DNA of 64,000 bases from Kiritimatiellia bacterium (GTDB lineage: Bacteria > Verrucomicrobiota > Kiritimatiellia > CAIQIC01 > Lenti-01). The position numbers and the translations under genes are program-made. Below the pieces are notes generated by a model. The model had not been told where the DNA came from and ran no database searches. It worked only from the letters and a program-made list of their open reading frames with translations. Positions 16,358 through 63,060 of the stretch are shown piece by piece; position 1 is the first letter of the stretch; every line of letters starts with the position of its first letter. The stretch covers positions 6,828-70,827 of the forward strand of contig JAFTAH010000072.1 in NCBI GenBank assembly GCA_017458625.1. Reading direction: 5' to 3'.

Positions 16358-16444
<87 letters not shown>

Positions 16445-19352: not shown

Positions 19353-19459
19353 GGGGCAGGTGCCCCCGGCGGCAGGTGGCGCGACGCGTGCGGCTTGGGA
19401 GTTGCTCCGGGAGGTAGGCTTTGGTATTCTGCGGGGGTTCAACGAAAGCACCAAGGCGT

Positions 19460-48570: not shown

Positions 48571-51336
48571 CTATTCGGCACCCATCGTCCCGCTCACCGG
48601 GAGCAGTAGCGCCTCTGTCACCACCAAGGGCGAAGAGGCTTTGGCGTAGGACTTGTTAAGAATCAATTCGAAGCGGAACGGCATGGGAGGATCGGAAATG
48701 AGAATCAACGGCAGTCGTGTTTCTTCCGTGTCCGCCTGAAGAGCCGTTGACGCAAGGATATCGGGCGAATTAAAATACGTGACCTGGAACGAACCGATTC
48801 CGTTGTCGGACACACGATTGTGCCGCAGAACGGGGAGGTAGACTCCTGGCGGCACGGGCAGGTTGGGGCCGTAAAGCGCCAGCCCCGGCGTAGTGGCTGC
48901 GGGAGGATACTCAATGGCAGGAGAATCGAGCTGGCAAAGGCCTGTCTGTTCGTCCACCAGCATTCGCCCAGAGAACCAGAGGCGAGAGGCCGGGAAGGCA
49001 TAGGCACCATCGGTGGACCGGGGCTTCCAGACGGGACCGGCGGCAAGATAGGCCTGGACGAGAGTTGGCAGCGGACCGGCGGACGCCTTCTTGGTGGTGG
49101 ACAGGGAAAGGCCATAGGGCGAGGCCAAAGGCGTCGAAAACCAACCCGATGTAGCCGAATTCGTGGGCATGACCGCCGGGAGCGACTCAACCGCGACGGG
49201 AGGGCCTTCTGGAGAAGGCAGAGGACGCAGCGCGACCGAGCGTGGACTCACCGCCGCCAGCAGGAGTTCCATCCGCAGATTCGGTTGGGCAAAAATGGGC
49301 GCACGGAGTTTCAACCGCTCGGGGCGCCTCAGGCCAACAGGCTTGCGACAGAAGAAATGGAGTCTGGTTGGCGGCGGCAAGGCGTCAAACCAGGCGACAT
49401 CCAATGCATTTGAGGAAGTCATCGTGTCCGTCTGCTGCTTTTCGTCTTGCCTCAGAATACGAAAGGCAACGGTCTGGGGCGGCAGTGCCCAATCGGAAGC
49501 TGGCGGGCCAAAAGGCGACTCTAGCAGTTGCAGCCTCGGGTTGGCGCGGAGTCCCTGCAACGTGTAGACTGGCGGCCAAGGAGAAACCGTTTCGGGGAAG
49601 GCATGTGGATAGTATAGAATGTAGTGGCATCCCATGGCCAGCAGGGCGTCCAGTTGCGCATCGTCCGCAACCCCTTGGTTGATGGACTCGAAACGCTGAA
49701 ATACATTCTGGCGATAGTCGGCCGGCGCCGCCGGAGAATAGCCATTGATAAAGCGAATGCGTGAAAGCACGGCATCGTATTCATACAAGCTGGACCAATG
49801 GGAGTCGCCTGGCCAGATGGGAATCGCCAGCGCCAGCGGCTTCTCATCCTGGACACCGGCGGCATCTGACAGCACAGCATCTAGCGCCGGTGCGCGTTCC
49901 GGCAGTTGGGTGAGCACCGGCCGAACATGGTCAAGATTCCCCAGGATGACCAGGGCCGAGAAAATCCACACGAAAGCAATCGCCATGCCGTTAACCAGAC
50001 GACCACGTCCCCTCTCCGCCCCACGCGAATCCCCGGATGCATGCGCTGATTCATCCAATTCGGTTTTCGAACCGCGCACCAGAACCGCGCGGTAGATCAG
50101 CGCCAGTAGCGGTACCACGAAGGTTGGCAGAAGACAGTAAATCTTCGCGGTCTGGCGAATCATCGAATACTTGGGCACCAGTTTGCGCGCAAGGCGAATC
50201 CAGAGGCCTGCCGGTGGCGCATGAATCCCCAGCCCCAGCAGGATGGTCGTCAAGATACCCAGCACCAGCAAAACCACGGCCACACGCGGCAACCGGGCCC
50301 GACCTTCCTGTCTCGCCGCCGTCCACCCGGCCAACAGAAGCCCTACCACCAGCAGAACCAGCAGCGGCCAACCGAAGTAGATATGCCGCGCCATTCCCGT
50401 GGCGTTTGCCTCGAACAGCCCGTTGCACATGGGCGAATAGGCCGCCATCTCGAAAATGGTGCGCCCGCCTTGCAGCGAGCTCTGGGCCAGGTTTTGATGG
50501 GCCAAGAAGGTCACGTAGGCAATGGCCCCCAGCAACAGCAGCGCCAACGGAAGCATGGGCAGCAGCACCCGGGCGGAACGCCAGACGGTCGCCAGCCAGT
50601 CGCGCCACGACGGCGCCGCCAGCGTCAGCGAGAGCAATGCCAGCCCGGGCGTCGCCAGCGCGGAAAAATAGAAGACGTGCAAATCGGACGCATACGCGCA
50701 GAAGAGCTCGACGAATACCAGCCCCCACCCCAGCGGCGAGCGGTCGCGGATGGCGCGATCCATGCCATAGGCCAGGAGCGGAGGCAGTGCAATCGCAAAA
50801 CCGGTGGGAGAGCCGCAGACCAGCGTAATCAAGCGGTAGGGCAAGGTACCGCCCAGTAGGGCCGCCAGTGCCGCTGGCAGCCGTGATGGGCCGGGGGCAA
50901 AGCGCCGCGCCCAGAGATACAGGAAGAACAAGCCGAAAAGATAGGAAACCACTCCCGTCACATTCCATGCCACCGCCGCGCCCAGCAGCGGATGAAGCGC
51001 CGCAAAAACTAGTGAAAACGGGAAATAGTGGAAGTCCGCCTGCGTCCGAGCCGAATCGTCTCCCAGATTGAACTCGTAGACGTTTGAAAACGCGGGCGAA
51101 TGGCCGGCCAGCGAATCGTATCCCAGCCAGAAATGATAGAGGAGCTGAATACTGTCAGCGGGATGTGTGCCCTCTGGCAACGCCCTGCCGGAACCGGCCT
51201 GGTCGGACAAAGGAATCATGTCGGTGAAATGTACCGGCAGCGGCCACATCGCATGCCCATAGCACAGCAGGGCCAGAAGCACGAAACCAATCACCGCGAA
51301 CAGATGGCTCAGACCAGAATGGGAAGAATTTTTCAT
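48571..51336 (-). CDS. YfhO-family polytopic membrane protein (putative glycosyltransferase, GT-C like)
   Basis: 921 aa, >12 TM helices in the N-terminal half plus a large C-terminal extracytoplasmic domain; resembles YfhO/ArnT-like GT-C proteins. Confidence 0.65.
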   Translation of the reverse strand: MKNSSHSGLSHLFAVIGFVLLALLCYGHAMWPLPVHFTDMIPLSDQAGSGRALPEGTHPADSIQLLYHFWLGYDSLAGHSPAFSNVYEFNLGDDSARTQADFHYFPFSLVFAALHPLLGAAVAWNVTGVVSYLFGLFFLYLWARRFAPGPSRLPAALAALLGGTLPYRLITLVCGSPTGFAIALPPLLAYGMDRAIRDRSPLGWGLVFVELFCAYASDLHVFYFSALATPGLALLSLTLAAPSWRDWLATVWRSARVLLPMLPLALLLLGAIAYVTFLAHQNLAQSSLQGGRTIFEMAAYSPMCNGLFEANATGMARHIYFGWPLLVLLVVGLLLAGWTAARQEGRARLPRVAVVLLVLGILTTILLGLGIHAPPAGLWIRLARKLVPKYSMIRQTAKIYCLLPTFVVPLLALIYRAVLVRGSKTELDESAHASGDSRGAERGRGRLVNGMAIAFVWIFSALVILGNLDHVRPVLTQLPERAPALDAVLSDAAGVQDEKPLALAIPIWPGDSHWSSLYEYDAVLSRIRFINGYSPAAPADYRQNVFQRFESINQGVADDAQLDALLAMGCHYILYYPHAFPETVSPWPPVYTLQGLRANPRLQLLESPFGPPASDWALPPQTVAFRILRQDEKQQTDTMTSSNALDVAWFDALPPPTRLHFFCRKPVGLRRPERLKLRAPIFAQPNLRMELLLAAVSPRSVALRPLPSPEGPPVAVESLPAVMPTNSATSGWFSTPLASPYGLSLSTTKKASAGPLPTLVQAYLAAGPVWKPRSTDGAYAFPASRLWFSGRMLVDEQTGLCQLDSPAIEYPPAATTPGLALYGPNLPVPPGVYLPVLRHNRVSDNGIGSFQVTYFNSPDILASTALQADTEETRLPLILISDPPMPFRFELILNKSYAKASSPLVVTEALLLPVSGTMGAE

Positions 51337-51499
51337 GTTTGGTTGCCTTGGCTGTGCCCCGCCTCAATCGGCTCGCCATCCAAAATGGCAACACGTTTTG
51401 CAGAGCACGAATGAATCATCCTTTCGTTTTTATCGTGCCATACACAAGGACAGCCCGCAACTGCAAAATCTGTTCGTGAAATCATGATATTTCTTCCGG

Positions 51500-51600
51500 G
51501 CGCATCTGGGTTGTTTGCAACCTCGCTCAAGGGCAATTCCGGGAAAGCTGCAAACGCCCGGCAGGCTTGGTAGGGACCAACCGCCGGGCGGCCCGTGTGC
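51500..51600 (+). repeat. copy B of the ~100-bp repeat family (GCGCATCTGGGTTGTTTGCAA...GGGCAATTCCGGGAAAGCTGCAAACGCCCGGCAGGCT...CCGCCGGGCGGCCCGTG)
   Basis: See copies A and C; sits between the secY terminator and the YfhO-like gene. Confidence 0.6.
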
Positions 51601-51636
51601 CAGAATTGTCTTTCCGAAGCCACAAAAAAACCCGGC

Positions 51637-51672: not shown

Positions 51673-53019
51673 CTAGCGGCGGGAGCGCAGATGGCCCTTG
51701 CGGAGGAAGCCGTCGTAGTGGCGGGTGACGAGGTGGGATTCGACCTGGCGCATCGTGTCCAGCATGACGCCCACGATGATCAACAGCGACGTGCCACCGA
51801 AGAACTGCGCCACCAGCTGGGGAATCTTCAGCATGGGGAGCAGGATGATGGGGAGCACCGCGATGATGGTCAGGAAGATGGCCCCGGCCAGCGTGATGCG
51901 GGTCATGGTCTTGTCCAGATACTCGGCCGTGGGCTTGCCCGGACGGATGCCTGGCACATAGCCGCCGTACTTCTTGAGGTCGTCGGCGATCTGGACGGGA
52001 TGGAACTGGGTCGCCACCCAGAAGTAGGAGAAGAAGAGGATGAGCAAGCCGTAGATGGCAATGTAGAAGAAGGAGGCTTCGCGAGTCAGATGGGTCTGCG
52101 CAAAGTTCTTGGTGAAGGGAATCCATTCCAGCACGCGGCCGAGGAACATCAGGATGGCGGAGGCGAAGATGATGGGCATGACGCCGGAATAGTTCACACG
52201 GAGAGGCATGTAGGTGCTCTGCCCGCCATAGGTCTTGCGCCCGACGACGCGCTTGGCATACTGCACCGGAATCTTGCGCTGGGCCTGGGTGACGGCCACC
52301 ACGCCGGCCGTCACCAGGAAGGCCAGAGCGATGATGACGATCAGCTTGAAGATGTTGGCATCGCCCGTGTGGAACATGGCAATGGTCTGCTCGATGGCTC
52401 CCGGCAGACGGCTCACGATGCTGACCGTGATAATAAGCGAGATGCCGTTGCCAATGCCTCGCGCCGTGATCTGCTCGCCAAACCACATGAGCAACATGGT
52501 GCCCGTCGTCATCGCCAAGACCGCCAGCAACAGGAACGGCACGTTCCCGAGCAACACGATGCGCGTACCTTCCGCAGCCGCCCCGAGGAAACGGCTCGGA
52601 TGGAGCAGCGCGGCAGCAAAGCCAAAGCCCTGGACGACGCACAGGAACACCGTCAGATAGCGGCCATACTGGATGATCTTCTGGCGGCCACTGTCCCCTT
52701 CACGGGCAAGCCGCTCCAGCGACGGGATGACCGCCGTCATGAGCTGCAGGATGATGGAGGCGCTAATGGAGGGCATGATGCCCAGCGCCCCAATGGCCGC
52801 CGCCGTGAGGGCGCCGCCGGAGAACAGGTCAAGCAACCCGAGAAAACCGACGCCACTGCCCTGCGTGATGCGGTCGACAATGCCCTGCAGAGCGACGACA
52901 TCGACGCCCGGCAGTGGGATGACGGCCAGCATCCGGCAGAGGAACAGCAGCGCGCAGGTGAAGAAAATGCGCTGGCGGAGCTCGGGAATCTTAAGGGAGT
53001 TGGTAAATGCGGAAAGCAT
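51673..53019 (-). CDS. secY: preprotein translocase subunit SecY
   Basis: 448 aa, 10 TM helices, conserved SecY motifs (GIMPSISASIILQL, FGEQITARGIGNGISLII). Confidence 0.92.
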   Translation of the reverse strand: MLSAFTNSLKIPELRQRIFFTCALLFLCRMLAVIPLPGVDVVALQGIVDRITQGSGVGFLGLLDLFSGGALTAAAIGALGIMPSISASIILQLMTAVIPSLERLAREGDSGRQKIIQYGRYLTVFLCVVQGFGFAAALLHPSRFLGAAAEGTRIVLLGNVPFLLLAVLAMTTGTMLLMWFGEQITARGIGNGISLIITVSIVSRLPGAIEQTIAMFHTGDANIFKLIVIIALAFLVTAGVVAVTQAQRKIPVQYAKRVVGRKTYGGQSTYMPLRVNYSGVMPIIFASAILMFLGRVLEWIPFTKNFAQTHLTREASFFYIAIYGLLILFFSYFWVATQFHPVQIADDLKKYGGYVPGIRPGKPTAEYLDKTMTRITLAGAIFLTIIAVLPIILLPMLKIPQLVAQFFGGTSLLIIVGVMLDTMRQVESHLVTRHYDGFLRKGHLRSRR

Positions 53020-53183
53020 CGTGGGGTCCTTTCTGCGAAAGCCCCGCGCAGCTGGCGTGGGGCGCTAACGGCTGGCGCAAATGCGCCCGGCGCGGCCTTT
53101 TTGCAAACAGGAAAAGGCCGAAACCCGTGAAGGCCGGAAGCCAATCCCGTCATGGGAGCTGGCTGCGGCCTCGTAGTTCATGC

Positions 53184-53684
53184 CTAGGCCTCCGACGCCG
53201 ACGTATCGGCAGCGGCAGCGGCCTCGACCACCTGCTTGGGCTTGGCCAGCGAAAGGACTTCGCAGGTGCCACCCGCCGCCTCGATCTTCGCCTTGGCGGA
53301 AGCGGAGAAGGCGTGCGCGGAAACCTTGCGCGCCTCCTTGATCTCGCCGTTGCCCAGGATCTTGACGAGGTCGGACTTGGCGATGCGGCCGGCGGCGACA
53401 AGCGCGGCCGGGGTGATGTCGCCCGCCGCCAGGTCGCAGAGGTCGCCCACGTTGATGGCGGCGTACTCGACCCGGTTGGGGCTGGTGAAGCCACGCTTCG
53501 GGATGCGGCGGATGAGCTTCATCTGACCGCCTTCGAAGAGCGGCTTGTGCTTGTGCCCAGTGCGGCTCATCTGGCCCTTGTTGCCCTTCCCGGACGTGCG
53601 GCCCTTGCCGGACGATTCGCCACGGCCAACCCGCATGCGGGCAGTCCGCGCACCCTTGACGTTCTTGAGTTCGTTAAGCTTCAT
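53184..53684 (-). CDS. rplO: 50S ribosomal protein L15
   Basis: MKLNELKNVKGARTARMRVGRGESSGKGRTSGKGNKGQ. Confidence 0.9.
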   Translation of the reverse strand: MKLNELKNVKGARTARMRVGRGESSGKGRTSGKGNKGQMSRTGHKHKPLFEGGQMKLIRRIPKRGFTSPNRVEYAAINVGDLCDLAAGDITPAALVAAGRIAKSDLVKILGNGEIKEARKVSAHAFSASAKAKIEAAGGTCEVLSLAKPKQVVEAAAAADTSASEA

Positions 53685-53696
53685 GGAACAGGCTCC

Positions 53697-54206
53697 TTAC
53701 TGGCGCAGGGCGCTGATTTCTTCGCGGCTCCGCAGCTGGACGAGACCGTCCATGGTCGCCTTGACAACGTTGATGGGGCAGGTGGCGCCCAGGCTCTTGG
53801 CGAGGACGTCGCGCACCCCGGCCAGGTCGAGGACGGCCCGCGCCCCGCCGCCGGCGATGACGCCCGTTCCCTTGGAGGCGGGCTTGAGCATGACGCGGGA
53901 GGCGCCACAGCGGCCAATCACCTCGTGCGGAATGGTGCGGTCCTTGAGGACAATCTTGACCATGGCGCGACGCGCCATCTCCGTGCCCTTGCGGATGGCG
54001 TCCGCGTTCTCGTTGGCCTTGCCCAGGGCGTAGCCGATCTGGCCTTCGCCATCGCCAACCACGACCAGCGCGGAATAGCTGAAGCGACGGCCGCCCTTGA
54101 CGACCTTGGACGTGCGGTTGACCTGGACGACGCGCTCCTGGATGTTGTCCTTGACGAAGTCGTCACTCTTGCGATCACGATCGCGCTTGCGGAATTCTTC
54201 TGCCAT
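53697..54206 (-). CDS. rpsE: 30S ribosomal protein S5
   Basis: VVQVNRTSKVVKGGRRFSYSALVVVGDGEGQIGYALGKA. No rpmD (L30) gene lies between rpsE and rplO. Confidence 0.92.
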   Translation of the reverse strand: MAEEFRKRDRDRKSDDFVKDNIQERVVQVNRTSKVVKGGRRFSYSALVVVGDGEGQIGYALGKANENADAIRKGTEMARRAMVKIVLKDRTIPHEVIGRCGASRVMLKPASKGTGVIAGGGARAVLDLAGVRDVLAKSLGATCPINVVKATMDGLVQLRSREEISALRQ

Positions 54207-54220
54207 TGGAAACTCCTGGG

Positions 54221-54577
54221 TTAGAAGACGAGACCAGCCTCGCGGGCGGCGTCGGCCAGGGCGCGAAGGCGTTTGCTGTAGACGAAACCACCGCGGTCGA
54301 AGACGACGGCGGAGATGCCCTTGGCCTTGGCGGCCTCGCCGGCGGCAGTCCCGACGGCCTTGGCTGTTTCGGCGTTGAGCGGCTTGTCCTTGAGTTCTCC
54401 GGCAACCGTGGAGACGGCGGCAAGCGTGCGGCCGGCCACGTCGTCAATGAACTGGACGTAGATGTGCTTGTTGGAGAGGAACACGCTCATGCGGGGACGT
54501 TCGGCACTGCCCTTGACCTTGCGGCGCAGGCGCAGATGACGGCGAATCCGATATTCCTTGAGAGTCTTGACTTTCAT
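54221..54577 (-). CDS. rplR: 50S ribosomal protein L18
   Basis: [31 protein letters not shown]...[30 protein letters not shown] at 54577. Confidence 0.88.
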
Positions 54578-54578
54578 G

Positions 54579-55118
54579 CTATGCCACCGTCTTTCCTGCC
54601 TTGCGGCGAACGTGCTCGTCCTTGTAGCGGATGCCCTTGCCCTTGTAGGGCTCCGGCGGGCAGAAGCCGCGGATGCGTGCGGCAACCTGGCCGACCAGCT
54701 GCTTGTCGATGCCTTCGACCTTGAGATGGACGGCATCTTCCGCGACCGTCAGCTTGATTCCCTCGGGCACCTCGTAGATGACCGGATGGGAGAAGCCCAC
54801 GCTCATGTTGAGCGTCTTGCCGCTGATGGAGGCGCGATAGCCGACGCCCTGAATCTCAAGTTCCTTGGCATAGCCGGAAAGCACGCCTTGGACCATGTTG
54901 TTGAGGAGCGCGCGCATCGTGCCATGGGAAGCACGAGCCTGCTTGTCCTCGGCCTTGCGGGCGACCGTGAGGACGCCGTTGTCCAGAGTGACCTCGATGC
55001 CGGCGGGGATGGGCTGCGCAAGCTCGCCCTTGGGCCCCTTGACCGTGACCTGACCATCTGAAATGGTGGCTTCGACGCCCTTGGGGAGCGGAAGCGGTTT
55101 CTTGCCAATGCGGGACAT
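54579..55118 (-). CDS. rplF: 50S ribosomal protein L6
   Basis: [33 protein letters not shown]. Confidence 0.92.
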
Positions 55119-55136
55119 ATCGTGTGACCTTTCTGG

Positions 55137-55532
55137 TTACCAGACCTGGCAGAGGACTTCGCCGCCGACGTTGGCCGCGCGGGCCTGCCGGTCGGAAAGA
55201 ATTCCCCGGCTGGTGCTGAGGACGGCCGTGCCGAGTCCGGCGCGCACGCGGGGGATGTCGCCGGCACCGACGTAGCGACGGAGACCGGGCTTCGACACGC
55301 GGGCGATCTTCTGGATGACGGGCTTGTCGTTGTAGTACTTGAGCTTGATGCAAAGCGTCTTCTTGCCGTCGACCTCGCCCTCCGAGACCTCGCCGACGTA
55401 GCCTTCCTCCTTGAGGGTGCGGGCGATGGCGGCCTTGAGGCGGGAATGGCTCATGACGACGTCGGCAAGACCGGCGCGACTGGCATTGCGAATGCGGGTG
55501 AGCATGTCCGCGATGGGATCAGAGCAACTCAT
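55137..55532 (-). CDS. rpsH: 30S ribosomal protein S8
   Basis: DPIADMLTRIRNASRAG...AVLSTSRGILSDRQARAANVGGEVLCQVW. ATG at 55532. Confidence 0.9.
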   Translation of the reverse strand: MSCSDPIADMLTRIRNASRAGLADVVMSHSRLKAAIARTLKEEGYVGEVSEGEVDGKKTLCIKLKYYNDKPVIQKIARVSKPGLRRYVGAGDIPRVRAGLGTAVLSTSRGILSDRQARAANVGGEVLCQVW

Positions 55533-55546
55533 GGGGCTTCTCCTTT

Positions 55547-55786
55547 CTACCAACTGGCTTTGACGACGCCGGGAATCTTGCCTTCGGAGGCGAGCTCGCG
55601 GAAGCAGATGCGGCAGAGCTGGAATTTGCGCATGTAGCCGTGACGACGGCCGCAGCGCTTGCAGCGGGTGTAGGCGCGCGAAGTGAAGGTGGCGGGCGAT
55701 TCGGGGTCGGCCTTCGCGGCGGCGAGGGCGTCGGCCTTGCGCTGGATGGTGCGCTCGCTCTTGACCCTGAGGGATTTCTTAGCCAT
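55547..55786 (-). CDS. rpsN: 30S ribosomal protein S14 (zinc-binding CxxC...CxxC form, 79 aa)
   Basis: [13 protein letters not shown]...[42 protein letters not shown] at 55786. Confidence 0.88.
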
Positions 55787-55799
55787 GTGTATGACCTTT

Positions 55800-56339
55800 C
55801 TATGCGTTGGCGAAGGGCATGCCCAGAAGCCGGAGAAGCTCCTTGGCGTCTGCATCGGTCTTCGCAGTGGTTACGATGGTGATGTCCATGCCCTGGACGC
55901 GCTTGACCTTGTCGGCGTCGATCTCGGGGAACAGGCTCTGCTCCTTGAGCCCCATGGTGTAGTTGCCGCGTCCGTCGAAGGACTTGGCGGGGATGCCGCG
56001 GAAGTCGCGGATGCGCGGGAGGGCCGCGTGGATCAGGCGCTCGAGGAACTCGTACATGCGCTCGCCGCGCAAGGTGACCTTGGCCCCGATGGCCATGCCT
56101 TCGCGAAGCTTGAAGTTCGAGATGCTCTTCGTGGCCTTCGTCAGCGCCGGACGCTGCCCGGTGATCTTCGCCAGGTCGTCCATGGCGGCCTTGAGCGCAT
56201 CGCGGTCGACCTGCGAGTTGACGCCGATGTTGACCACCACCTTGACGAGCTTCGGAATGTCCATCACGGACGGGAACTTGCCCGAGTCCTTGAGGGCCTT
56301 GACGACCTCGTTCGTGTATTTTTGCTTCAAGACGGACAT
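55800..56339 (-). CDS. rplE: 50S ribosomal protein L5
   Basis: [22 protein letters not shown]...[45 protein letters not shown]. Confidence 0.92.
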
Positions 56340-56342
56340 GGC

Positions 56343-56603
56343 TTACTCCTTCTCCTTCTTGGCCGCAGGGGTGACCACGGCGAGATTCGAGATCGCGATG
56401 GGGGCTTCGCGCTTGACGATGCCGCCATTCGGATTGTCGTTGCTCTTCTTCAGGGCCTTGGAGACGAAGTGGAATCCTTCGACCAGCGCGCGCTGCGTCT
56501 TCGGATACACCTTGAGGACCTTGCCTGTCTTCTTGCCGGCGTCGGCGCCGGAAATCGCGCGGACGATGTCGCCGCGGCGAACGTGCAGCTTGGGCTTGTT
56601 CAC
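56343..56603 (-). CDS. rplX: 50S ribosomal protein L24 (86 aa, GTG start overlapping the rplN stop)
   Basis: (V)NKPKLHVRRGDIVRAISGADAGKKTGKVLKVYPKTQRALVEGFHFVSK. GTG at 56603-56601 shares one base with the rplN TAG. The upstream part of the 188-aa track ORF is antisense noise. Confidence 0.8.
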   Translation of the reverse strand: MNKPKLHVRRGDIVRAISGADAGKKTGKVLKVYPKTQRALVEGFHFVSKALKKSNDNPNGGIVKREAPIAISNLAVVTPAAKKEKE

Positions 56604-56968
56604 TAGAGCACCTCCGGGGCAAGGGAAATCACCTTCATGTAGTTCATTTCGCGCAACTCGCGGGCCACCGGTCCGAAGATGCGGCTGCCGCGCGGGTTCT
56701 TCTGGTCGTCGATGAGGATGACCGCGTTGTGGTCGAACGAGAGCGTCGAGCCATCGGGCCGGCGGATAGGGGCCGCCGTCCGGATGATGAGGGCCTTGGC
56801 GACCTCGCCCTTCTTGACCATGCCGACGGGCTGGCATTCGCGGATCGACACCTTGATGATGTCGCCGATGTGCGCCACCGTCTTGCGCTGGCCCAGGACC
56901 TTGATGCACTTGGCCAGACGGGCGCCCGTGTTGTCGGCGACCGTCAGTTCGGTTTCCATCTGGATCAT
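56603..56968 (-). CDS. rplN: 50S ribosomal protein L14
   Basis: [26 protein letters not shown]...[24 protein letters not shown]. Confidence 0.92.
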
Positions 56969-57303
56969 GCCTTCACCTCGCTTCCATCGGCGCGAACCTG
57001 GATCTCGACCAGGCGCCAGCGCTTCGTCTTGCTCAGCGGACGCGTCTCGGCGATGAGCACCTTGTCGCCCTTCTTGGCCTGGTTCTTTTCGTCGTGGACG
57101 TAGTACTTCTTGCTACGGCGCAGGAACTTGCCGTAGATGGGGTGCTGGATGCGGCGCTCGGACGAGACGATGATGGTCTTGTCCATCGCATCGCTCACCA
57201 CGATGCCCACGCGCTGCTTGCGGTTGTTCTTGCGCGCCGCAGGGGCGGCGGCAGCCGCCTCGGGGGCAGCCGGAACCGCGGCTTCGTTAAGTTCTTCGGT
57301 CAT
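56965..57303 (-). CDS. rpsQ: 30S ribosomal protein S17 (with Ala-rich N-terminal extension)
   Basis: [45 protein letters not shown]...[23 protein letters not shown]. Confidence 0.9.
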
Positions 57304-57306
57304 GTC

Positions 57307-57501
57307 TTATGCTTCCTTCCTGGACTCGTTGAGGATGGTGCGAATGCGGGCGACCTCGCGGCGCGCGGCACGCAGGAGGACGGGCTTCTCGAGCTGGCCC
57401 ATGGCCTTCTGGTGACGCAGGCTCGCCAGTTCGGCCTCGGCCTCGGTCAGCCGCTGCGCCTGCTCTTCGGCGGTCAAGTCGCGAATCTCTTTGGCTTTCA
57501 T
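57307..57501 (-). CDS. rpmC: 50S ribosomal protein L29
   Basis: MKAKEIRDLTAEEQAQRLTEAEAELASLRHQKAMGQLEKP. Confidence 0.9.
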   Translation of the reverse strand: MKAKEIRDLTAEEQAQRLTEAEAELASLRHQKAMGQLEKPVLLRAARREVARIRTILNESRKEA

Positions 57502-57522
57502 CGGTGCTTCTCCTTCCGTGCG

Positions 57523-57942
57523 CTAGAGGACGATGCCGCGGCGAACGAACTGCGTGTGGATCGGGAGCTTGGTCGCGGCCAGCCGCAGGCATTCGATGGC
57601 CTGGGCCTCGCTGACGCCGTCCATCTCGAAGAGGATACGGCCCGGACGGACCACGGCCACCCAGCCCTCGACAGCGCCCTTGCCCTTGCCCATGCGGACT
57701 TCCAGGGGCTTCTTGGAATAGGACTTGTCGGGGAAGATGCGGATCCAGAGCTTACCATGGCGCTTCATGGCGCGGTTCATGGCCACGCGGCACGCCTCGA
57801 TCTGGATGTTGGTGATCCAGCAGCGCTCGGTGGTCTTGAGGCCGTATTCGCCGAAGGCCAGCGTGTTGCCGCTCATCGAGTTCCCCTTGCGGGACCCGCG
57901 CTGGCTCTGGCGGTACTTGACGCGTTTAGGCATGAGTGGCAT
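57523..57942 (-). CDS. rplP: 50S ribosomal protein L16
   Basis: [49 protein letters not shown]. Confidence 0.92.
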
Positions 57943-58609
57943 GGCTACGCTCCTTTCGCTGCGTACGGGCGGCGGGAATCACGTCGCCGTTCGGGTTCTG
58001 GCAGATCCAGCACTTCACGCCGATCTTGCCGACCATGGTGTGGGCCTCGGCAAAGCCGTACTGCACGTCCTCGCGGAGCGTCTGCAGCGGAACCTTGCCC
58101 TGCATGTAGTGCTCGGTGCGCGCCAGCTCGGCGCCGCCCAGACGACCGCAGGCCTGCACCCGGATGCCCAGGGCACCGGTATCCATGGCCAGCTGCATGG
58201 CGCGCTTCATGGCACGGCGGAACGCGATGCGGCGCTCCAGCTGCGACGCGATGGACTCGGCCACCAGCTGCGCGTTCGAATCCGGATTCCGGACTTCCTG
58301 GATGTCGATGTAGACATCCTTGCCCGTCGCCTCCGTGATCTTCTTGCGCACTTCGTCCGTCCCCTCGCCCTTGTGGCCGATGAGGACGCCCGGACGCGCC
58401 GAGTAGATGTGGATGCGGACCCGGTTCTGGTGACGCTCGATCACCACGTCGGAAATGCCCGCCTCCTTCAGATACTTCGCAATGATCTGCCGGATGAGCA
58501 AGTCCTCGTGCAGCATGTCGCCGAACGCCTGCTTGTCCGCGAACCAGCGGCTCTTCCACTGCTTGTGGACCGCCGTGCGGAACCCAATCGGATTAACTTT
58601 CTGGCCCAA
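57926..58609 (-). CDS. rpsC: 30S ribosomal protein S3
   Basis: [27 protein letters not shown]...KH2 domain. Confidence 0.92.
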
Positions 58610-58619
58610 TGTGTGCCTC

Positions 58620-59039
58620 CTAGCCCTTAATGACCAATCCCTTAATCAACTTTTCCGTGGCTTTCTTCGACGGCTTCTCGTCCATCAGGGTGACGGAGAT
58701 ATGGCTCGTCTTCTTCCGGATCGATGCCGCGCTGCCCCGGGCCCGTGGCCAGTAGCGGGGGAACGTCGGCCCGTTGTCCACGACGGCCGATGCCACGTAG
58801 AGATCGTCCGCCGACATCTGTCCGTTGTTTTCCGCGTTCGCGATTGCCGACTTCAGCGTCTGCCCGATGCATTCGGCAGCCTTCCGCTTGTTCAGCTCGA
58901 CCACCCGCAACGCCTCGGCCACGCTCAGGCCCGTAATCGCCCGCGCCAAGTCCCGCGCCTTCATCGGCGCCAGCCTGACGAACTTGCTGGTCGCGACGAA
59001 CGTGCGGATCGGTTTCTGCTTCTTGCTTTCGCTTTCCAT
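58620..59039 (-). CDS. rplV: 50S ribosomal protein L22
   Basis: TFVATSKFVRLAPMKARDLARAITGLSVAEALRVVEL...ASAVVDNGPTFPRYWPRARGSAASIRKKTSHISVTL. Confidence 0.9.
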   Translation of the reverse strand: MESESKKQKPIRTFVATSKFVRLAPMKARDLARAITGLSVAEALRVVELNKRKAAECIGQTLKSAIANAENNGQMSADDLYVASAVVDNGPTFPRYWPRARGSAASIRKKTSHISVTLMDEKPSKKATEKLIKGLVIKG

Positions 59040-59040
59040 G

Positions 59041-59829
59041 TCATTTTCCTTCCGGACCGGCCGTGCCTGCCAGCACCGCCCGGTCCCCGGGTTTCGGCCC
59101 CTCTGCGTCCGCCATCTCCTCGATGGCCGCGCCGGAGAGCACCTCTCTCACATCAATCACCCGCAGCCTCGCCACCTTGCGCCGCCCCCGCAGAACCGTC
59201 AGCGGGAGGCCATAGCGCACGCCGTGGCGCGAGCCCAGGTCGACGACTGCCAGTCCCAGCTCCGGATTCACGTCCACGACTTGCCCTTCGAGGGGCCCGT
59301 CGAGGACTGGATCCTCGGCCGGAGGCGGCATCCCGGATGCCGCATTCGCATCCAGTGCCTCCATTGCCTCGGCCAGGCGGCGTCCCAGCAGCTCGGCCCG
59401 GGCTTCCAGTCTTGCGTTCTCCTGACGAAGTGCCGCAAGTTCGGCCCCGAGCCGTGCCACCGCAGTTTGCGCCTCACCGGCCAGCAACTCCAGCAGCTCG
59501 TCTCCGTTGTCTTTCACTCCCCCGCCGGTCTTGCGGCGCCCCTCCGCACCGGCCGCCTCGGTCACTTCCGTGGCCTGGGCTTCCTGCGCGGACTGCACCA
59601 CCGTTCCAGCGGTTGTCTCCGCCTTCTCCCGGACCGCCGTGGGGGTCGTTGCCGACCCCTTTTGCACTGAATCCGGGAGGGTAGAAGACGTTGGCGTGTC
59701 AGCCAACGGTTCAGTAATCAAATCATCTTCCAGGCGCCCATGCAAGAAAAAAATGATTCCCGCACAAGCGATCGCTCCGACGACCGCAGCCCCGGCAAAG
59801 GCCAGGGCTTGCCCGACGAAGCGGCGCAC
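59041..59829 (-). CDS. membrane-anchored coiled-coil protein of unknown function inserted between rpsS and rplV in the S10 operon (262 aa, GTG start)
   Basis: GTG at 59829 preceded by a GGGGATGGGG SD-like stretch, 17 nt after the rpsS stop; stop at 59041 is 1 nt before the rplV ATG. N-terminal TM FVGQALAFAGAAVVGAIACAGIIFFL, central coiled coil LAALRQENARLEARAELLGRRLAEAMEAL, C-terminal ~90-aa domain (GQVVDVNPELGLAVVDLGSRHGVRYGLPLTVLRGRRKVARLRVIDVRE). Coding is not fully certain because overlapping frames in this GC-rich stretch are also open. Confidence 0.55.
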   Translation of the reverse strand: MRRFVGQALAFAGAAVVGAIACAGIIFFLHGRLEDDLITEPLADTPTSSTLPDSVQKGSATTPTAVREKAETTAGTVVQSAQEAQATEVTEAAGAEGRRKTGGGVKDNGDELLELLAGEAQTAVARLGAELAALRQENARLEARAELLGRRLAEAMEALDANAASGMPPPAEDPVLDGPLEGQVVDVNPELGLAVVDLGSRHGVRYGLPLTVLRGRRKVARLRVIDVREVLSGAAIEEMADAEGPKPGDRAVLAGTAGPEGK

Positions 59830-59845
59830 CGCCCCATCCCCGCGG

Positions 59846-60130
59846 CTACTTCAGCGCGACGGTCTTGTCCGTCGCCGCGCCGTGATGGCGGAACGTACGC
59901 GTGGGCGCGAATTCGCCCAGGCGGTGACCCACCATGTTCTCGGTCACGAACACGTTCGTGAACACCTTCCCGTTGTGGACGTTGAAGGTATGTCCGACGA
60001 ACTCCGGCAGCACCATGCTGCGGCGCGACCAGGTCTTGATCGGGAGCTTCTTCCCGCCCTTGTTCATCGCTTCCACCTTCTTCATCAGGTGGTCTTCGAC
60101 GTACGGGCCCTTCTTGATCGAGCGACTCAT
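59846..60130 (-). CDS. rpsS: 30S ribosomal protein S19
   Basis: [55 protein letters not shown]. Confidence 0.93.
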
Positions 60131-60957
60131 TACTTCTTCCTCCTCTGCACGATGAACTTGCTAGACGTCTTGCGCGGGTTGCGGGTGCGCTTGCCCTTGG
60201 CGAGCTGGCCCCACGGCGAGACGGGGTGGCCGCCGCCGGACGACCGGCCTTCGCCGCCGCCCATGGGGTGGTCCACCGGGTTCATCGCCACGCCGCGCAC
60301 GGTCGGGCGGATGCCCTTCCAGCGCTTGCGGCCGGCCTTGCCCATGGACTCGTTCTCGTGTTCCAGGTTGCCGACCTGCCCGATGGTCGCCAGGCAACGC
60401 ACGCTGACCTTCCGGATTTCGCCGGAGGGGAGGCGGATCTGCGCATACTTGTCGTCGCGGGCGGCGATCTTGGCCACCATGCCGGCGCTGCGGGCGAGCT
60501 TGGCGCCGCCGCCGGGGTTCATCTCGATGCAATGGACGTTCATCGACAGCGGGATGGCCGACAACGGCAGGGCATTGCCCACCGCCGGCTCCGCCTTCGG
60601 GCCGCTCATCACGGTGTCGCCGACCTTCAGGCCGTCCGGCGCCAGGATGTAGCGCTTTTCGCCGTCCGCATAGGCCAGCAGGGCGATGCGGGCGCTACGG
60701 TTGGGGTCGTATTCCAAGGCCTGGACCTTCGCCGGAATGTCAAACTTCTGGCGCTTGAAGTCCACCAGGCGCAGATAGCGCTTGTGCCCGCCGCCGCGAT
60801 GGCGGATGGTGATCCGCCCCTGGGCGTTCCGGCCGGCCTGGCCCTTCTTGATCACCCGCAGCTTGCGCTCCGGGCGCTTCTTCGTCAATCCGTCAAAATC
60901 CGACAGCGTCGTGAAGCGAAGACTCGCTGTCCTTGGCTTGTATTTCTTCAGTCCCAT
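60130..60957 (-). CDS. rplB: 50S ribosomal protein L2
   Basis: [26 protein letters not shown]...[29 protein letters not shown]. Confidence 0.93.
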
Positions 60958-60969
60958 GACTCCACCTCG

Positions 60970-61248
60970 CTATGCCGTTTCGATCGTGTTCCCGGACTCG
61001 AGCGTCACCACGGCGCGCTTCCAGTCCGACGTCCGGCCCGGCGTCCGGTTGCGGCCGACGCGCTTGGCCTTGCCCTTGCGCATCATGGTCCGGACATCCT
61101 TGACCTTCACCTTGAACTCCTGCTCCACCGCCTGGCGGATCTGGAGCTTGTTCGCTGCCTTGTCGACCTCGAAGAGATACGAGTTCGTGGCCGCCTGCAT
61201 GGCGGTGCCCTTCTCGGTCACCAGTAGCTTCTTGATGATGTTCTGCAT
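60970..61248 (-). CDS. rplW: 50S ribosomal protein L23
   Basis: [49 protein letters not shown]. Confidence 0.9.
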
Positions 61249-61251
61249 CGT

Positions 61252-61884
61252 CTATTCCTCCTCCCCCGCGCGCGCCGCCAGCACGTCCAGGCCTTCCGCG
61301 TCCGTCAGGACCACGGGATACCTGAGCATCTGGTAGGTGTTCACCTGGCTGGCCGTCGTGACTTCCGCGTCCGGCAGATTCCGGGCGGCACGGCTCAGCT
61401 TCTCGCTGGTCTGGCCGGTCACGAAGAGCGTGGCCTTGCCATCCGCCACCTTCTTGAGCAGCGGGACCAGATTCCGGGTCTTGGGCTCCACGTCGGCAAG
61501 ACCTTCCGCGACCGCGATCGTCCCCTCGACGACCTTGTCCGAAAGGACGCGGCGGAACGCGAGCGCGACCACCTTCTTGTTGACCTTCTTCGAGAAGTCG
61601 CGGGGATGCGGGCCGAAGACCACGCCGCCGCCGCGCAGGATGGGCGAACGCCGCGACCCCTGCCGCGCATTGCCGCTGCCCTTCTGCTTGTAGGGCTTGC
61701 GGCCGCCGCCGGACACGTTGGCCCGAGTCCGCGTCGAAGCCGTTCCCGCACGCTTCGCGGCCCGGTAGGCCGTGATCACGTCGTGCACCGCCTGCTCCCC
61801 GCGGTCGGTCACCAGCAGCTTGTCCGAAAATTCCTTCTCGCCGATGCTTTCGCCGGCGAGGTCATATACCTTGATCGTACTCAT
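61252..61884 (-). CDS. rplD: 50S ribosomal protein L4
   Basis: [44 protein letters not shown]. Confidence 0.92.
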
Positions 61885-61890
61885 GTCCGT

Positions 61891-62526
61891 CTACGCCTTC
61901 TTGATTGCCTTCCGGACCATCACCAGGCCGCCGTTCGGCCCCGGGACCGCGCCCGCCAGCAGGATTGCGTTGTCTTCCGGCATCACCTTCACCACGCGCA
62001 GGTTCTGCGTCGTGACGTTCGCCGAGCCCATCTGGCCAGGCAGCCGCTTGTTCTTGAACACGCGGGCAGGCCACTCGCGGTTCCCGATCGAGCCCGGACG
62101 GCGCGTCCAGGCCCCGCCGTGCGTTTCCCGGCCGCCGGCCATGCGGAAGCGCCGGATGACGCCCTGGAAGCCGCGGCCCTTGGTCTTGGCCAGCACGTCC
62201 ACGTAGGCCACGCCTTCGAAGATCGAGGCCGTGATCGTGTCGCCGACCTTGGCATCCTCGCCCTCGTCCAGGCGAACCTCGCGGAGCACGCGCTTGGCGC
62301 TCACGCCAGCCTTCTCGAAATGCTTCTGCTGGGCCTTAGCCAGGCGCTGGGGCTTCTGGTCCTCGAACCCGAGCTGCACCGCCTCGTAGCCATCGCTGGC
62401 CACGGTCTTGCGCTGCACCACCGCGCACGGTCCGACCTGCAACACCGTCACCGGCACCTGCACGCCGTTCTCGTCATAGATGCGCGTCATCCCCACCTTC
62501 CGTCCGATCAATGCTTTCATCTGCAT
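61891..62526 (-). CDS. rplC: 50S ribosomal protein L3
   Basis: [40 protein letters not shown]...[17 protein letters not shown]. Confidence 0.93.
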
Positions 62527-62534
62527 GCCCTCCT

Positions 62535-62840
62535 CTACAGCTTGATCTGGATGTCCACGCCAGCCGGGAGGTTCAGCTTCTTCAGCTCGTCAACCGTCTT
62601 GGCCGTCGGGTCGATGATGTCGATCATCCGCTTGTGCGTGCGGATTTCGAACTGTTCCATCGACTTCTTGTCCGCGTGAACGCTACGGTTCACGGTATAC
62701 CGCTCGATCCGTGTAGGCATCGGGATCGGCCCTGCCACTTGGGCGCTGGTGCGCTTGGCGGTGTCCACGATGTCCTGGGCCGACTGGTCCAGCATCCGGT
62801 GGTCGAACGCCCGCAAGCGAATTCTAATGCGTTGTTTCAT
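62535..62840 (-). CDS. rpsJ: 30S ribosomal protein S10
   Basis: [78 protein letters not shown]. Confidence 0.93.
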
Positions 62841-63032: not shown

Positions 63033-63060
63033 ATTCAACCACACCCATTTTTTTTGTCAA
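63033..63060 (-). promoter_or_regulatory. candidate sigma-70-type promoter of the S10 operon (TTGACA -35, 16-nt spacer, TTGAAT -10) in an AT-rich patch ~190 nt upstream of rpsJ; the 62841-63030 stretch would be the S10 leader
   Basis: Minus-strand reading gggagTTGACAaaaaaaatgggtgtggTTGAATac. Only sequence-level resemblance. Confidence 0.3.

Follow-up and report, generated by a model that had tools for sequence, protein, structure and literature searches.

The window, a stretch of 64,000 nucleotides from a Kiritimatiellia bacterium, contains an open reading frame, here named ORFX, which lies between the genes of ribosomal proteins S19 and L22 in the S10 operon. The ORF listing and direct reading of the sequence confirmed the position, the GTG start codon and the length of 262 residues reported in the first-pass annotation. 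The genes and junctions of the locus are as follows.

59846..60130, minus strand, rpsS (ribosomal protein S19), upstream neighbour, 94-aa ORF
59830..59845, minus strand, rpsS-ORFX spacer of 16 nt, CCGCGGGGATGGGGCG, with the Shine-Dalgarno-like GGGGAUGGGG (direct read)
59041..59829, minus strand, ORFX, GTG start, 262 aa (ORF listing and direct sequence read)
59037..59056, minus strand, ORFX-rplV junction, GGAAGGAAAA-UGA-C-AUG, 1-nt spacer
58620..59039, minus strand, rplV (ribosomal protein L22), downstream neighbour, 139-aa ORF

The rpsS product was 83-98% identical to the S19 proteins of related loci, the counterpart genes of which carried Pfam Ribosomal_S19, and Pfam Ribosomal_L22 was found in the counterparts of rplV. 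The rpsS stop was read directly as TAG at 59846-59848 and the start codon of ORFX as GTG at 59827-59829, so that the spacer measured 16 nt and not the 17 nt first reported, while its plausible Shine-Dalgarno sequence and the single nucleotide before the rplV ATG were both borne out. ORFX ended with TGA at 59041-59043, followed by the single base C and by the rplV ATG at 59037-59039. The Shine-Dalgarno-like GGAAGGA of rplV was located within the final codons of ORFX (GAA GGA AAA TGA), and the 1-nt spacing was common to all six loci of the window lineage. Scanning of the coding strand between rpsS and rplV for promoters and terminators revealed no site resembling either. Because of this and of the junctions of 16 nt and 1 nt, ORFX is likely to be co-transcribed with the ribosomal genes, which agrees with the first reading of the locus. 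The GC3 of ORFX was 0.73, compared with 0.83-0.91 in the neighbouring ribosomal genes, and this lower value could reflect either expression below the stoichiometric level suggested by the operon position or a constraint at the RNA level.

At 65% G+C, a 262-codon ORF alone is no evidence of a gene, and the antisense frames of ORFX were also largely open; its status as a gene is therefore attributed to conservation and not to length. Each of the 49 related loci examined had a homologue immediately before rplV, and in 46 of them rpsS was visible on the upstream side. Among the other three, two were contigs ending upstream (L035 and L046), and in the third (L040) the cluster was broken upstream while the gene stayed with rplV. 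The 49 loci consisted of 26 GTDB species genomes titled Kiritimatiellia, Verrucomicrobiota or Lentisphaerae, unassigned metagenome contigs, and one NCBI MAG titled 'Verrucomicrobia bacterium'; the patterns used in the genome scan were specific to the Kiritimatiellia subfamily, and the metagenome scan with alignment A4 contributed 9 loci. The check proposed for the ORF, whether other Verrucomicrobia conserve it at this position, thus came out clearly positive. Further family matches, named Chthoniobacterales, came from a search with an alignment of the C-terminal domain only and stand outside the 49-locus context count. In the homologue search, 9 close homologues of the protein were found, and the profile search returned 1,484 cluster representatives at E<=1e-3 and 335 at E<=1e-10. 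None of the 1,484 representatives contained a Pfam domain, and their source names were mostly 'hypothetical protein'. The protein-level homologues in the same operon slot extended down to about 25-45% identity.

On these comparisons, ORFX is a genuine conserved protein-coding gene. Chance long ORFs are common at this G+C content, two of the three antisense frames were open over at least 80% of their length in half or more of the relatives (a0 in 15/30, a2 in 25/30), and the opposite-strand ORF at 58825-59670 (+), which the first-pass annotation had kept as an alternative, showed a GC3 of 0.83 against 0.73 for ORFX. The idea that ORFX is a chance ORF in a G+C-rich spacer, or that the opposite-strand ORF is the true gene, is nevertheless already refuted by the comparative data. 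The sense frame was the only frame open end to end in 30/30 distinct Kiritimatiellia-type sequences, the antisense frames being only sporadically open across relatives, and the indels among the relatives were multiples of three. Homologous proteins also reached two loci at 48-51% G+C (L031 and L032), where chance ORFs are rare, dN/dS was below 1, and the AlphaFold fold was confident. The ORF length was 249-266 aa in 29/30 loci, the exception (L030, 211 aa) being shortened by masked bases. For the long helix and the C-terminal domain, dN/dS was 0.05-0.4 in most of the informative pairs, with a few higher values; in the helix itself it was mostly 0.06-0.4, with distant pairs reaching 0.57. Judged from these substitution rates, purifying selection acts on the coiled coil and on the C-terminal domain.

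Gene callers differ on the start of ORFX, which matters for its annotation. The near-identical NCBI protein in the same 90% cluster was the 208-aa 'hypothetical protein IJT88_04100 [Kiritimatiellae bacterium]', and several metagenome gene calls of 84-146 aa covered little beyond the C-terminal domain. The hydrophobic N-terminus was conserved across the family, and the long start is therefore taken as the conserved one. The 208-aa call lacks the anchor, and use of its start would make the protein cytoplasmic. Literature searches yielded no description of the gene or of its RNA. An identity with the 'PVC signature protein' CT421.2 was also considered and dropped, since two papers that discuss CT421.2 made no mention of S19 or L22, and since in Chlamydia trachomatis, where S19 and L22 are adjacent, it is a different gene sited elsewhere.

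Structural analysis with AlphaFold agreed with the N-terminal membrane anchor, long helix and distinct C-terminal domain described at first pass, and divided the protein into four parts.

59731..59817, minus strand, N-terminal hydrophobic signal-anchor, residues about 5-33, predicted N-in (AlphaFold helix 5-38 and flank charges)
59515..59724, minus strand, low-confidence linker (pLDDT <50), residues about 36-105, with a conserved AETxxxxVQSA patch
59332..59511, minus strand, long α-helix, residues 107-166, with an invariant LAEA..ALD motif (AlphaFold pLDDT 90-97)
59062..59298, minus strand, C-terminal six-stranded β-barrel of the FlgT-C/TsaP/MreC type, residues about 178-256

In the model, the helices of residues 5-38 and 107-166 (the latter with pLDDT 90-97) were followed by a C-terminal domain of about 80 aa, for which the first-pass annotation could place no motif. 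Its structure prediction, suggested there as a further check, gave a single six-stranded barrel at residues 181-253, and the domain can be placed as a small β-barrel of the FlgT-C/TsaP/MreC type. The linker is probably disordered according to the model; its dN/dS was about 0.4-1.7 with unusually low dS, and the distant family members had no linker. The long helix probably forms a coiled coil. Weak Pfam matches of the coiled-coil type (SlyX and DivIC) were found in the protein, and the match to FtsB/DivIC (PF04977), which reached 13.1 bits over 25 coiled-coil residues against a gathering threshold of 28.9 bits, did not place ORFX in that family.

The topology of ORFX was assigned from the positive-inside rule and the N-termini of its relatives. 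In the window protein, only the handful of residues MRRFVGQ preceded the hydrophobic segment, the N-terminal flank (MRR) being positive and the C-terminal flank (HGRLEDD) acidic. Across the family, an N-terminal hydrophobic segment was present in 88/102 full-length members, with a charge of +1.7 at the N-flank and -0.5 at the C-flank. The N-termini of several relatives resembled cleavable signal peptides, as was the case for the short relatives P0020, P0023, P0028 and L043, and in many relatives the coiled coil came directly after such an N-terminus. Because of the charge bias and these signal-peptide-like N-termini, everything beyond the anchor is predicted to lie in the periplasm. A lipoprotein lipobox at AIAC was examined as well and rejected, since it was non-canonical and its Cys was not conserved.

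This predicted topology bears on the role first proposed for ORFX, that of a ribosome-associated membrane tether, an assembly factor or a lineage-specific ribosome regulator, in which the helix and the C-terminal domain would touch ribosomes in the cytoplasm. Its position in the S10 operon in 49/49 related loci suggests that the gene is co-regulated with the ribosomal proteins, and the 208-aa NCBI call would give a protein without the anchor. However, the family-wide hydrophobic N-terminus points to the long start as the conserved one, the protein is predicted to be N-in and C-out, and searches of Pfam and NCBIfam at E<=10 gave no match to a ribosomal or ribosome-factor family. A tether is disfavoured because the predicted periplasmic body would be out of reach of ribosomes, and a ribosome partner of any of these kinds now seems highly improbable.

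The barrel of ORFX was found to be remotely related in fold to those of FlgT-C, TsaP and MreC. Among these, the C-terminal domain of FlgT and the FlgT-like domains of TsaP (PF16538; PDB 3w1e, 8z5n and 3jc8) were the best relatives at the sequence level and share the small six-stranded barrel fold. The family profile matched TsaP (3jc8) among the PDB sequences with E = 5.2e-5, the best stretch being 37 residues. Weak Pfam FlgT_C matches were seen in 17/38 members, with a best E of 8.3e-5 and all below the 27-bit cut-off, and the window protein itself had no match to FlgT_C (PF16538, gathering 27 bits). FlgT and TsaP are periplasmic and assemble around envelope-spanning machines. Unlike them, ORFX contains neither LysM nor the N-terminal or middle domains of FlgT and has the signal-anchor and the coiled coil instead, and no flagellar or pilus genes lie near it.

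The likeness to MreC (PF04085) concerns the overall plan, as ORFX combines an N-terminal anchor, a coiled coil and a six-stranded β-barrel predicted to be periplasmic, which also gave structural matches to MreC in the fold search. ORFX might on this basis be the divergent MreC of the lineage, a periplasmic scaffold of peptidoglycan synthases that had moved from mreBCD into the S10 operon. In addition to the shared plan, the NCBIfam MreC model NF010520 matched residues 125-215 with E = 0.017, weak Pfam matches to the MreC barrel core occurred in 5/38 members (best E = 0.002; none in the window protein), and one JGI pipeline name in the family was 'cell shape-determining protein MreC'. The NF010520 score was, however, far under the cut-off (14.5 vs 343 bits), which does not assign ORFX to that family, and the matches to FlgT_C/TsaP were stronger and more frequent. 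Solved MreC structures have two tandem β-barrel domains, compared with one in ORFX; the gene never adjoined mreB or mreD in the loci examined, lying instead in the S10 operon, and nothing linked it to peptidoglycan synthases. We therefore regard the identity of ORFX with MreC as unlikely. Small barrels also stand side by side in rings in the N-terminal 'crown' of the F1/V1-ATPase α/β subunits, in FliI and in the HAS-barrel of HerA, which differ in being cytoplasmic and fused to ATPase cores. The ORFX barrel showed 11-25% identity to them over the structural alignment, and the sequence searches recovered none of them, so this likeness is one of common fold only.

In addition to encoding the linker, the nucleotides of this part of the gene were constrained as RNA, with the following elements.

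59587..59724, minus strand, structured RNA within the linker-coding sequence of ORFX (low dS, invariant blocks, compensatory changes, folding energy)
59715-59724, minus strand, 5' block of the RNA, GAUUUGAUUA
59690-59707, minus strand, hairpin P1, GUUGGC-UGACAC-GCCAAC
59621-59689, minus strand, three-tier hairpin P2, inner stem 59642-59659 with a GCAA loop
59615-59623, minus strand, invariant GGCGGAGAC
59600-59613, minus strand, hairpin P4
59587-59598, minus strand, invariant GUGCAGUCCGCG

Our results showed that synonymous divergence dipped across the linker-coding stretch, where blocks of nucleotides were invariant. Compensatory changes were present in P1, P2 and P4 in 27 sequences and in the six sequences of the window lineage, and the covariation counts supported an embedded RNA structure. 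The fold of 59500-59725 (-) had an energy of -114.7 kcal/mol (z = -5.9), and 0/200 shuffles were as stable; control segments of the operon gave z values from +1.5 to -3.2, and among the segments sampled across 53000-62717 of the operon, the embedded RNA had the most stable fold. A covariance model matched the window at 59588-59622 (15.2 bits, E = 0.033). A covariance model built on all 206 nt of the element recovered it only in the 25 'main-clade' loci, with fragments in the window lineage and no match in distant lineages or in the rest of the window. Rfam (15) at gathering thresholds gave no match in the window except one tRNA, and at E<=1 no match in three of the related loci (L003, L012 and L017). 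From the comparison of these sequences, the linker-coding region also carries a conserved RNA structure in Kiritimatiellia lineages. The first-pass annotation contained no RNA structure in this part of the gene.

Several details of the fold permit more than one pairing. P1 may fold locally as a hairpin or pair with GGCGGCGCGGCGGAUGG in a long-range helix, and the changes in L004 fit both; P3 (GCGGA/UCCGC) and the outer stem of P2 compete for G84-G86; and several changes in the stem GUCCGCG/CG(U/C)GGAC were non-compensated. Two other ideas were rejected. A prfB-like +1 frameshift site, CUU UGA C in the invariant GUUCUUUGA, lies in frames that do not fit, and no frameshift is needed to keep the ORF open. 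A cytoplasmic isoform starting from an internal GTG in P4 was dropped as the GTG was not conserved (L004, L022, L023 and L028).

The embedded RNA would most likely work in cis, on the mRNA of the operon, through translation rate, coupling to rplV, processing or protein binding. The L4-responsive leader of the S10 operon and the S8 operator in the spc mRNA are autoregulatory elements of ribosomal proteins in E. coli. Like them, the RNA in ORFX is a conserved structured RNA of a ribosomal operon that lies just upstream of probably coupled ribosomal genes. It differs in lying inside a translated ORF and not in a leader or an intergenic region, and in being restricted to Kiritimatiellia-type lineages with no Rfam match.

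The RNA also raises the question of whether the protein is secondary, the ORF being chiefly a stretch of translated spacer with a regulatory RNA in it, which hands ribosomes to rplV by coupling and so lets the distal half of the operon be controlled. The most conserved nucleotides of the Kiritimatiellia genes were indeed located in the RNA element and not in a protein motif, the element was the stablest fold of the sampled part of the operon, and the stop-C-ATG junction placed the Shine-Dalgarno-like sequence of rplV inside the ORF. Against this, purifying selection on the helix and the barrel was clear, and both were conserved as protein in distant lineages that had neither the linker nor the RNA element. 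Because they are selected and kept in this way, the protein is considered to have a function of its own, and a mere spacer is very unlikely.

Taken together, we favour, with a probability of roughly 0.55, the reading that ORFX is a bitopic envelope protein with a periplasmic linker, helix and barrel, which is expressed from the S10 operon as a growth-linked scaffold and the linker codons of which also form a folded RNA. The short, positively charged N-terminus would stay in the cytoplasm, the one hydrophobic signal-anchor would cross the inner membrane, and the remainder, a flexible linker, a helix of roughly 60 residues and a small six-stranded β-barrel, would be periplasmic, with the helix probably forming a coiled coil that drives oligomerisation. 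ORFX would be transcribed as part of the S10 operon and probably translated by coupling, as it starts 16 nt past the rpsS stop and stops 1 nt before the rplV ATG. Through this transcription and coupling, we infer, synthesis of the protein would track ribosome synthesis and hence growth rate. In the verrucomicrobial envelope it would most likely serve as a structural element or scaffold on the periplasmic side, for which demand would scale with growth, as may be compared with secY in the neighbouring spc operon (secY of the same cluster lies at 51673-53019 in the window).

A more far-reaching reading, which we hold only tentatively, is that a periplasm-facing, non-ribosomal envelope protein became fixed in the slot between rpsS and rplV early in the evolution of the Verrucomicrobiota, and that its disordered-linker codons in Kiritimatiellia form an RNA of ~140-206 nt, which would represent a previously undescribed family and an operon-internal control element. 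Such an RNA might be an operator bound by a ribosomal protein, which would gate ORFX and, by coupling, rplV-rpsC-rplP and the genes beyond; it might also be a programmed pause ~35-40 codons past the signal-anchor, which would time membrane targeting.

Like ORFX, the genes secY, adk, map and infA of the spc/alpha region are non-ribosomal genes in ribosomal clusters, and as with secY, a membrane or secretion-related gene would be co-transcribed with ribosomal proteins and its output would track growth rate. Those genes close the spc operon and occur almost universally, whereas ORFX separates S19 from L22, which are otherwise adjacent, and the only loci in which it was found were those titled Kiritimatiellia, Verrucomicrobia or Lentisphaerae and unassigned metagenome contigs. 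The S19-L22 junction is among the most stable gene adjacencies in bacteria, and a conserved gene in its midst could provide a clean marker, of the synapomorphy type, for the lineages that carry it. The family is currently invisible to annotation because it has no Pfam model. The stretch in which the codons of a probably disordered linker are also shaped by RNA structure represents an unusually clear case of dual-use sequence, and the RNA within it may regulate a ribosomal-protein operon from an internal site, away from the leaders where such sites usually lie. The position of the gene also raises the question of why this predicted envelope protein would be made in step with ribosomes. If ORFX is an essential periplasmic scaffold, it would be a lineage-specific addition to the poorly understood biology of the envelope and division in the PVC bacteria.

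The presence of an ORF between rpsS (S19) and rplV (L22) in the S10 operon, as proposed in the first-pass annotation, was borne out by the ORF listing and by direct reading of the bases. This ORF, named ORFX, starts with GTG and encodes 262 aa.

59846..60130, minus strand: rpsS, upstream neighbour of ORFX
59041..59829, minus strand: ORFX
58620..59039, minus strand: rplV, downstream neighbour of ORFX

On the minus strand, the TAG stop of rpsS is followed by the Shine-Dalgarno-like 16-nt spacer CCGCGGGGATGGGGCG and then by the GTG of ORFX. The 3' end reads GGAAGGAAAA-TGA-C-ATG, so that the ORFX stop lies one base ahead of the rplV start, and the Shine-Dalgarno-like sequence for rplV lies inside the final ORFX codons. 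No promoter-like or terminator-like site was found by the site scan on the coding strand from rpsS to rplV. The segment 59780-60005 (minus strand), which covers the rpsS 3' end and the ORFX 5' end, exceeded most of the operon in folding stability (z = -3.2).

Since the G+C content of the window is 64.6%, the length of ORFX by itself is no proof of a gene, and the antisense frames of this stretch are also mostly open. An opposite-strand ORF (58825-59670, plus strand) had been raised earlier as the alternative coding frame, and was rejected on reading-frame and selection evidence for the sense strand: the sense frame was the only one open in all 30 distinct sequences, the indels were multiples of three throughout, and dN/dS (Nei-Gojobori) was 0.05-0.4 across the helix and the C-terminal domain for the majority of informative pairs, a few pairs being higher. 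The protein search returned nine homologues with 41-100% identity. Scanning of species-representative genomes gave 26 loci, all in MAGs titled Kiritimatiellia, Verrucomicrobiota or 'Lentisphaerae', a number that is no measure of the full range in Verrucomicrobiota or other PVC phyla because the patterns were subfamily-specific. Using tblastn with L2, S19, L22 and S3 of the window, the order L2-S19-ORFX-L22-S3 was observed in 30 of 30 close loci, with ORFX starting 2-19 nt past the rpsS stop (first start codon taken) and filling the gap to rplV; its length was 249-266 aa in 29 of them, the remaining one (L030, 211 aa) being shortened by masked bases.

The profile search of 1.84 billion cluster representatives extended the family to 1,484 proteins at E<=1e-3 (335 at E<=1e-10), mostly of 160-280 aa, which have the helix and the C-terminal domain in common. 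All distant members with retrievable context lay directly upstream of rplV, namely those of L031 and L032 (48-51% G+C), of eight of nine metagenome loci and of L042-L044, where L044 is an NCBI MAG titled 'Verrucomicrobia bacterium'; the taxonomy of the distant loci was taken from a few such record titles. Three more loci of the window lineage had this arrangement too, and further family matches outside the synteny count carry the NCBI organism name Chthoniobacterales. Among 49 related loci, rpsS was visible upstream in 46; the contigs of L035 and L046 stop before reaching its position, and L040 is the sole broken cluster, with the break upstream of the ORFX homologue and the gene still joined to rplV. 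In the stretch L040:2152-3670 of this metagenome contig, an unrelated 400-aa opposite-strand ORF lies upstream of the homologue. Taken together, these sequence comparisons show ORFX to be a genuine gene with a constant place in the operon.

In NCBI (MBP1590141.1, MBQ9344379.1), a protein near-identical to the ORFX product and in the same 90%-identity cluster is named 'hypothetical protein IJT88_04100 [Kiritimatiellae bacterium]'. It has 208 aa, which implies that it starts near codon 55 and is without the membrane anchor; conservation of the hydrophobic N-terminus among the relatives favours the 262-aa form. In JGI, most members are called 'hypothetical protein' and a few stray ones 'MreC' or 'SpoVG', no Pfam domain is on record for any family member among the protein-search matches listed, and no mention of the rpsS-rplV insertion was found in the literature searched. 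At L044:3505-4255 (GCA_005887855.1), the homologue is split over two frames, one a 154-aa signal-plus-coiled-coil ORF and the other the C-terminal domain, by either a frameshift or an assembly error; splits of this kind explain why many database entries have only 84-146 aa. P0108 (381 aa), a family protein from the profile search, carries two tandem C-terminal barrels after a long coiled coil. In the neighbouring rplV, the window lineage has an N-terminal L22 extension of ~15 residues (MESESKKQKPIRTF..., window 58995-59039, minus strand), and tblastn alignments of the window L22 with other Kiritimatiellia loci begin at window residue 14 or 16.

An AlphaFold model of the ORFX protein, built with the nine-sequence alignment, contained the following elements.

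Residues 5-38: helix covering the hydrophobic anchor
Residues 36-105: low-confidence segment that has a short helix where the conserved AETxxxxVQSA patch lies
Residues 107-166: long helix (pLDDT 90-97)
Residues 181-253: six β-strands

Modelled alone, the C-terminal domain had a pLDDT of 77.5, and structure comparison, with Foldseek agreeing, grouped the barrel with several known small barrels. For the window protein, nothing scored above threshold in Pfam, where only coiled-coil noise (SlyX, DivIC) appeared, or in NCBIfam, where MreC gave E = 0.017 and 14.5 bits vs a cut-off of 343. A profile of 38 diverse C-terminal domains matched TsaP (PDB) at E = 5e-5, and sub-threshold matches to FlgT_C occurred in 17 of the 38 domains vs 5 for MreC. 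We conclude from the profiles and the model that the domain belongs to no curated family and is probably related, remotely, to the periplasmic barrels of the FlgT-C/TsaP/MreC group. The closest protein relatives are MreC, which has the same overall plan but from which the ORFX protein departs in sequence, barrel number and context, and the FlgT-C/TsaP barrel, which shares the fold of the domain with a sequence match under threshold.

The window protein begins with MRRFVGQ, followed by ~23 mostly hydrophobic residues and then HGRLEDD. In a survey of 102 full-length family members, 88 had an N-terminal hydrophobic segment starting near residue 9, with a mean net charge of +1.7 before and -0.5 after it, and most members without the segment resembled truncated gene calls. 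Many short relatives, such as P0020, P0023, P0028 and the 165-aa protein of L043, have ordinary-looking signal peptides with the helix immediately after. The positive-inside rule predicts that linker, helix and barrel all lie in the periplasm. The earlier proposal of a ribosome tether was rejected mainly on this predicted topology, since almost no part of the protein is predicted to lie in the compartment of the ribosomes.

Most likely, the ORFX protein serves the envelope as a structural or scaffolding component on the periplasmic side, as suggested by its anchor combined with an oligomerising helix and a barrel like those of periplasmic scaffold proteins (MreC, FlgT, TsaP). Co-transcription and coupling with the ribosomal genes are inferred; through the S10-operon position and the tight junctions on both sides, ORFX synthesis would be tied to ribosome production and would follow growth rate. 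The 'stoichiometric' level suggested at first should not be assumed, because the GC3 of ORFX is 0.73 vs 0.83-0.91 for the ribosomal genes. The obvious precedent is secY (51673-53019), in the same cluster, and the spc-region genes secY, adk and map are the closest genomic analogy. Downstream of the window secY, the usual adk-map-infA-rpsM is absent. A TTGACA, 16-nt spacer, TTGAAT site, not flagged by the automatic promoter scan, lies ~190 nt upstream of the rpsJ ATG (62840) and is possibly the S10-operon promoter, which would leave a long leader.

63033-63060, minus strand: TTGACA/TTGAAT site
51333-51623: 96-aa ORF after secY
48571-51336, minus strand: 921-aa ORF after secY
47296-48303, minus strand: diadenylate-cyclase (DAC) domain protein beyond the 921-aa ORF
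19421-20650, plus strand: FtsA-like gene
16361-16441, plus strand: the one tRNA in the window

The linker-coding part of ORFX also contains a conserved structured RNA.

Window 59587-59724, possibly to about 59500, minus strand: structured RNA
L003:2745-2950, and the corresponding positions of 24 further loci: structured RNA of the main clade, the loci with the full element

In the N-terminal third of ORFX, dN/dS was about 0.4-1.7 owing to low dS, and in a sliding window over 24 main-clade sequences the synonymous divergence dropped from 0.4-0.5 to 0.15-0.29 in two linker stretches. The nucleotide alignment here consisted of near-invariant blocks, including GGCGGAGAC and GUGCAGUCCGCG, with self-complementary variable segments between them. 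When each sequence was folded from the first hairpin to the invariant GGCGGAGAC, a stem-loop around the terminal hairpin formed in 27 of 27. In 25 of these it was a single nested hairpin of three tiers, always in the same position, L024 and L001 folding less regularly. The inner stems were diverse (ACGGGC/GCCCGU, CAAAGAG/CUCUUUG, CCGGA/UCCGG, AGGGAC/GUCCCU, and GGGGUCG/CGACCCC in the window). After realignment of 24 sequences with a covariance model of the main-clade element (206 nt), 86% of cells were paired vs 34-46% with the partners slid, both-side changes occurred in 40 cells vs 12-23, and the covariation score was 0.112 vs 0.026-0.069; these counts support an RNA structure and are no proof of it, as the sequences are related and the alignment was fitted to the structure. 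The opposite strand of the element was less structured (z = -1.5 vs -2.5).

The covariance model found the full element as a single copy in each of 25 loci (165-232 bits) and scored L004 at 31.5, L001 at 28.3 and the window at 15.2 bits (59588-59622). The window lineage keeps stems P1 and P2 and the P3/P4 core with a diverged 3' part, and its six sequences showed compensatory changes in P1, in two stems of P2 (middle and inner) and in P4. P1 is GUUGGC/GCCAAC in the window vs GUCGGC/GCCGAC, GCCGGU/ACCGGC and GCCGGC/GCCGGC in the others, and the P2 middle stem is CUCCCGGA/UCCGGGAG vs CUCCGGGA/UCCCGGAG in L004. P1 may be either a local hairpin or a long-range helix. For the window segment 59500-59725 (minus strand) the folding energy was -114.7 kcal/mol (z = -5.9), a stability reached by 0 of 200 shuffles, while 28 non-overlapping control segments (53000 to 62717) gave z from +1.5 to -3.2; a segment overlapping the element gave -4.3, and the element itself, rerun, -7.3. 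The covariance model did not detect the element in the distant lineages, whose proteins have no linker, and Rfam gave no match to it.

The 5' edge of the element is the invariant GUUCUUUGA (e.g. L017:3816-3824; window 59715-59724, minus strand), which can base-pair with the element's 3' end. It holds CUU UGA C, a sequence known from the +1 frameshift site of prfB, and an out-of-frame stop is kept at this spot (UGA, or UAG in L004); a frameshift was rejected since the frames do not fit.

The open frame and the indels in threes imply that the region is translated; the codons of the disordered linker do double duty for protein and RNA structure. Candidate roles of the RNA are a protein-binding operator controlling ORFX together with the distal genes coupled to it, a pause in translation some 35-40 codons past the anchor, a processing site, and protection against premature termination. 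The ribosomal-protein operators are the closest analogy; unlike them, the ORFX element sits inside the ORF. We rate the ORFX product as a predicted periplasmic protein of coiled coil plus barrel whose gene has a conserved and very unusual place in the genome, and the undescribed RNA structure in its gene may merit study by itself.
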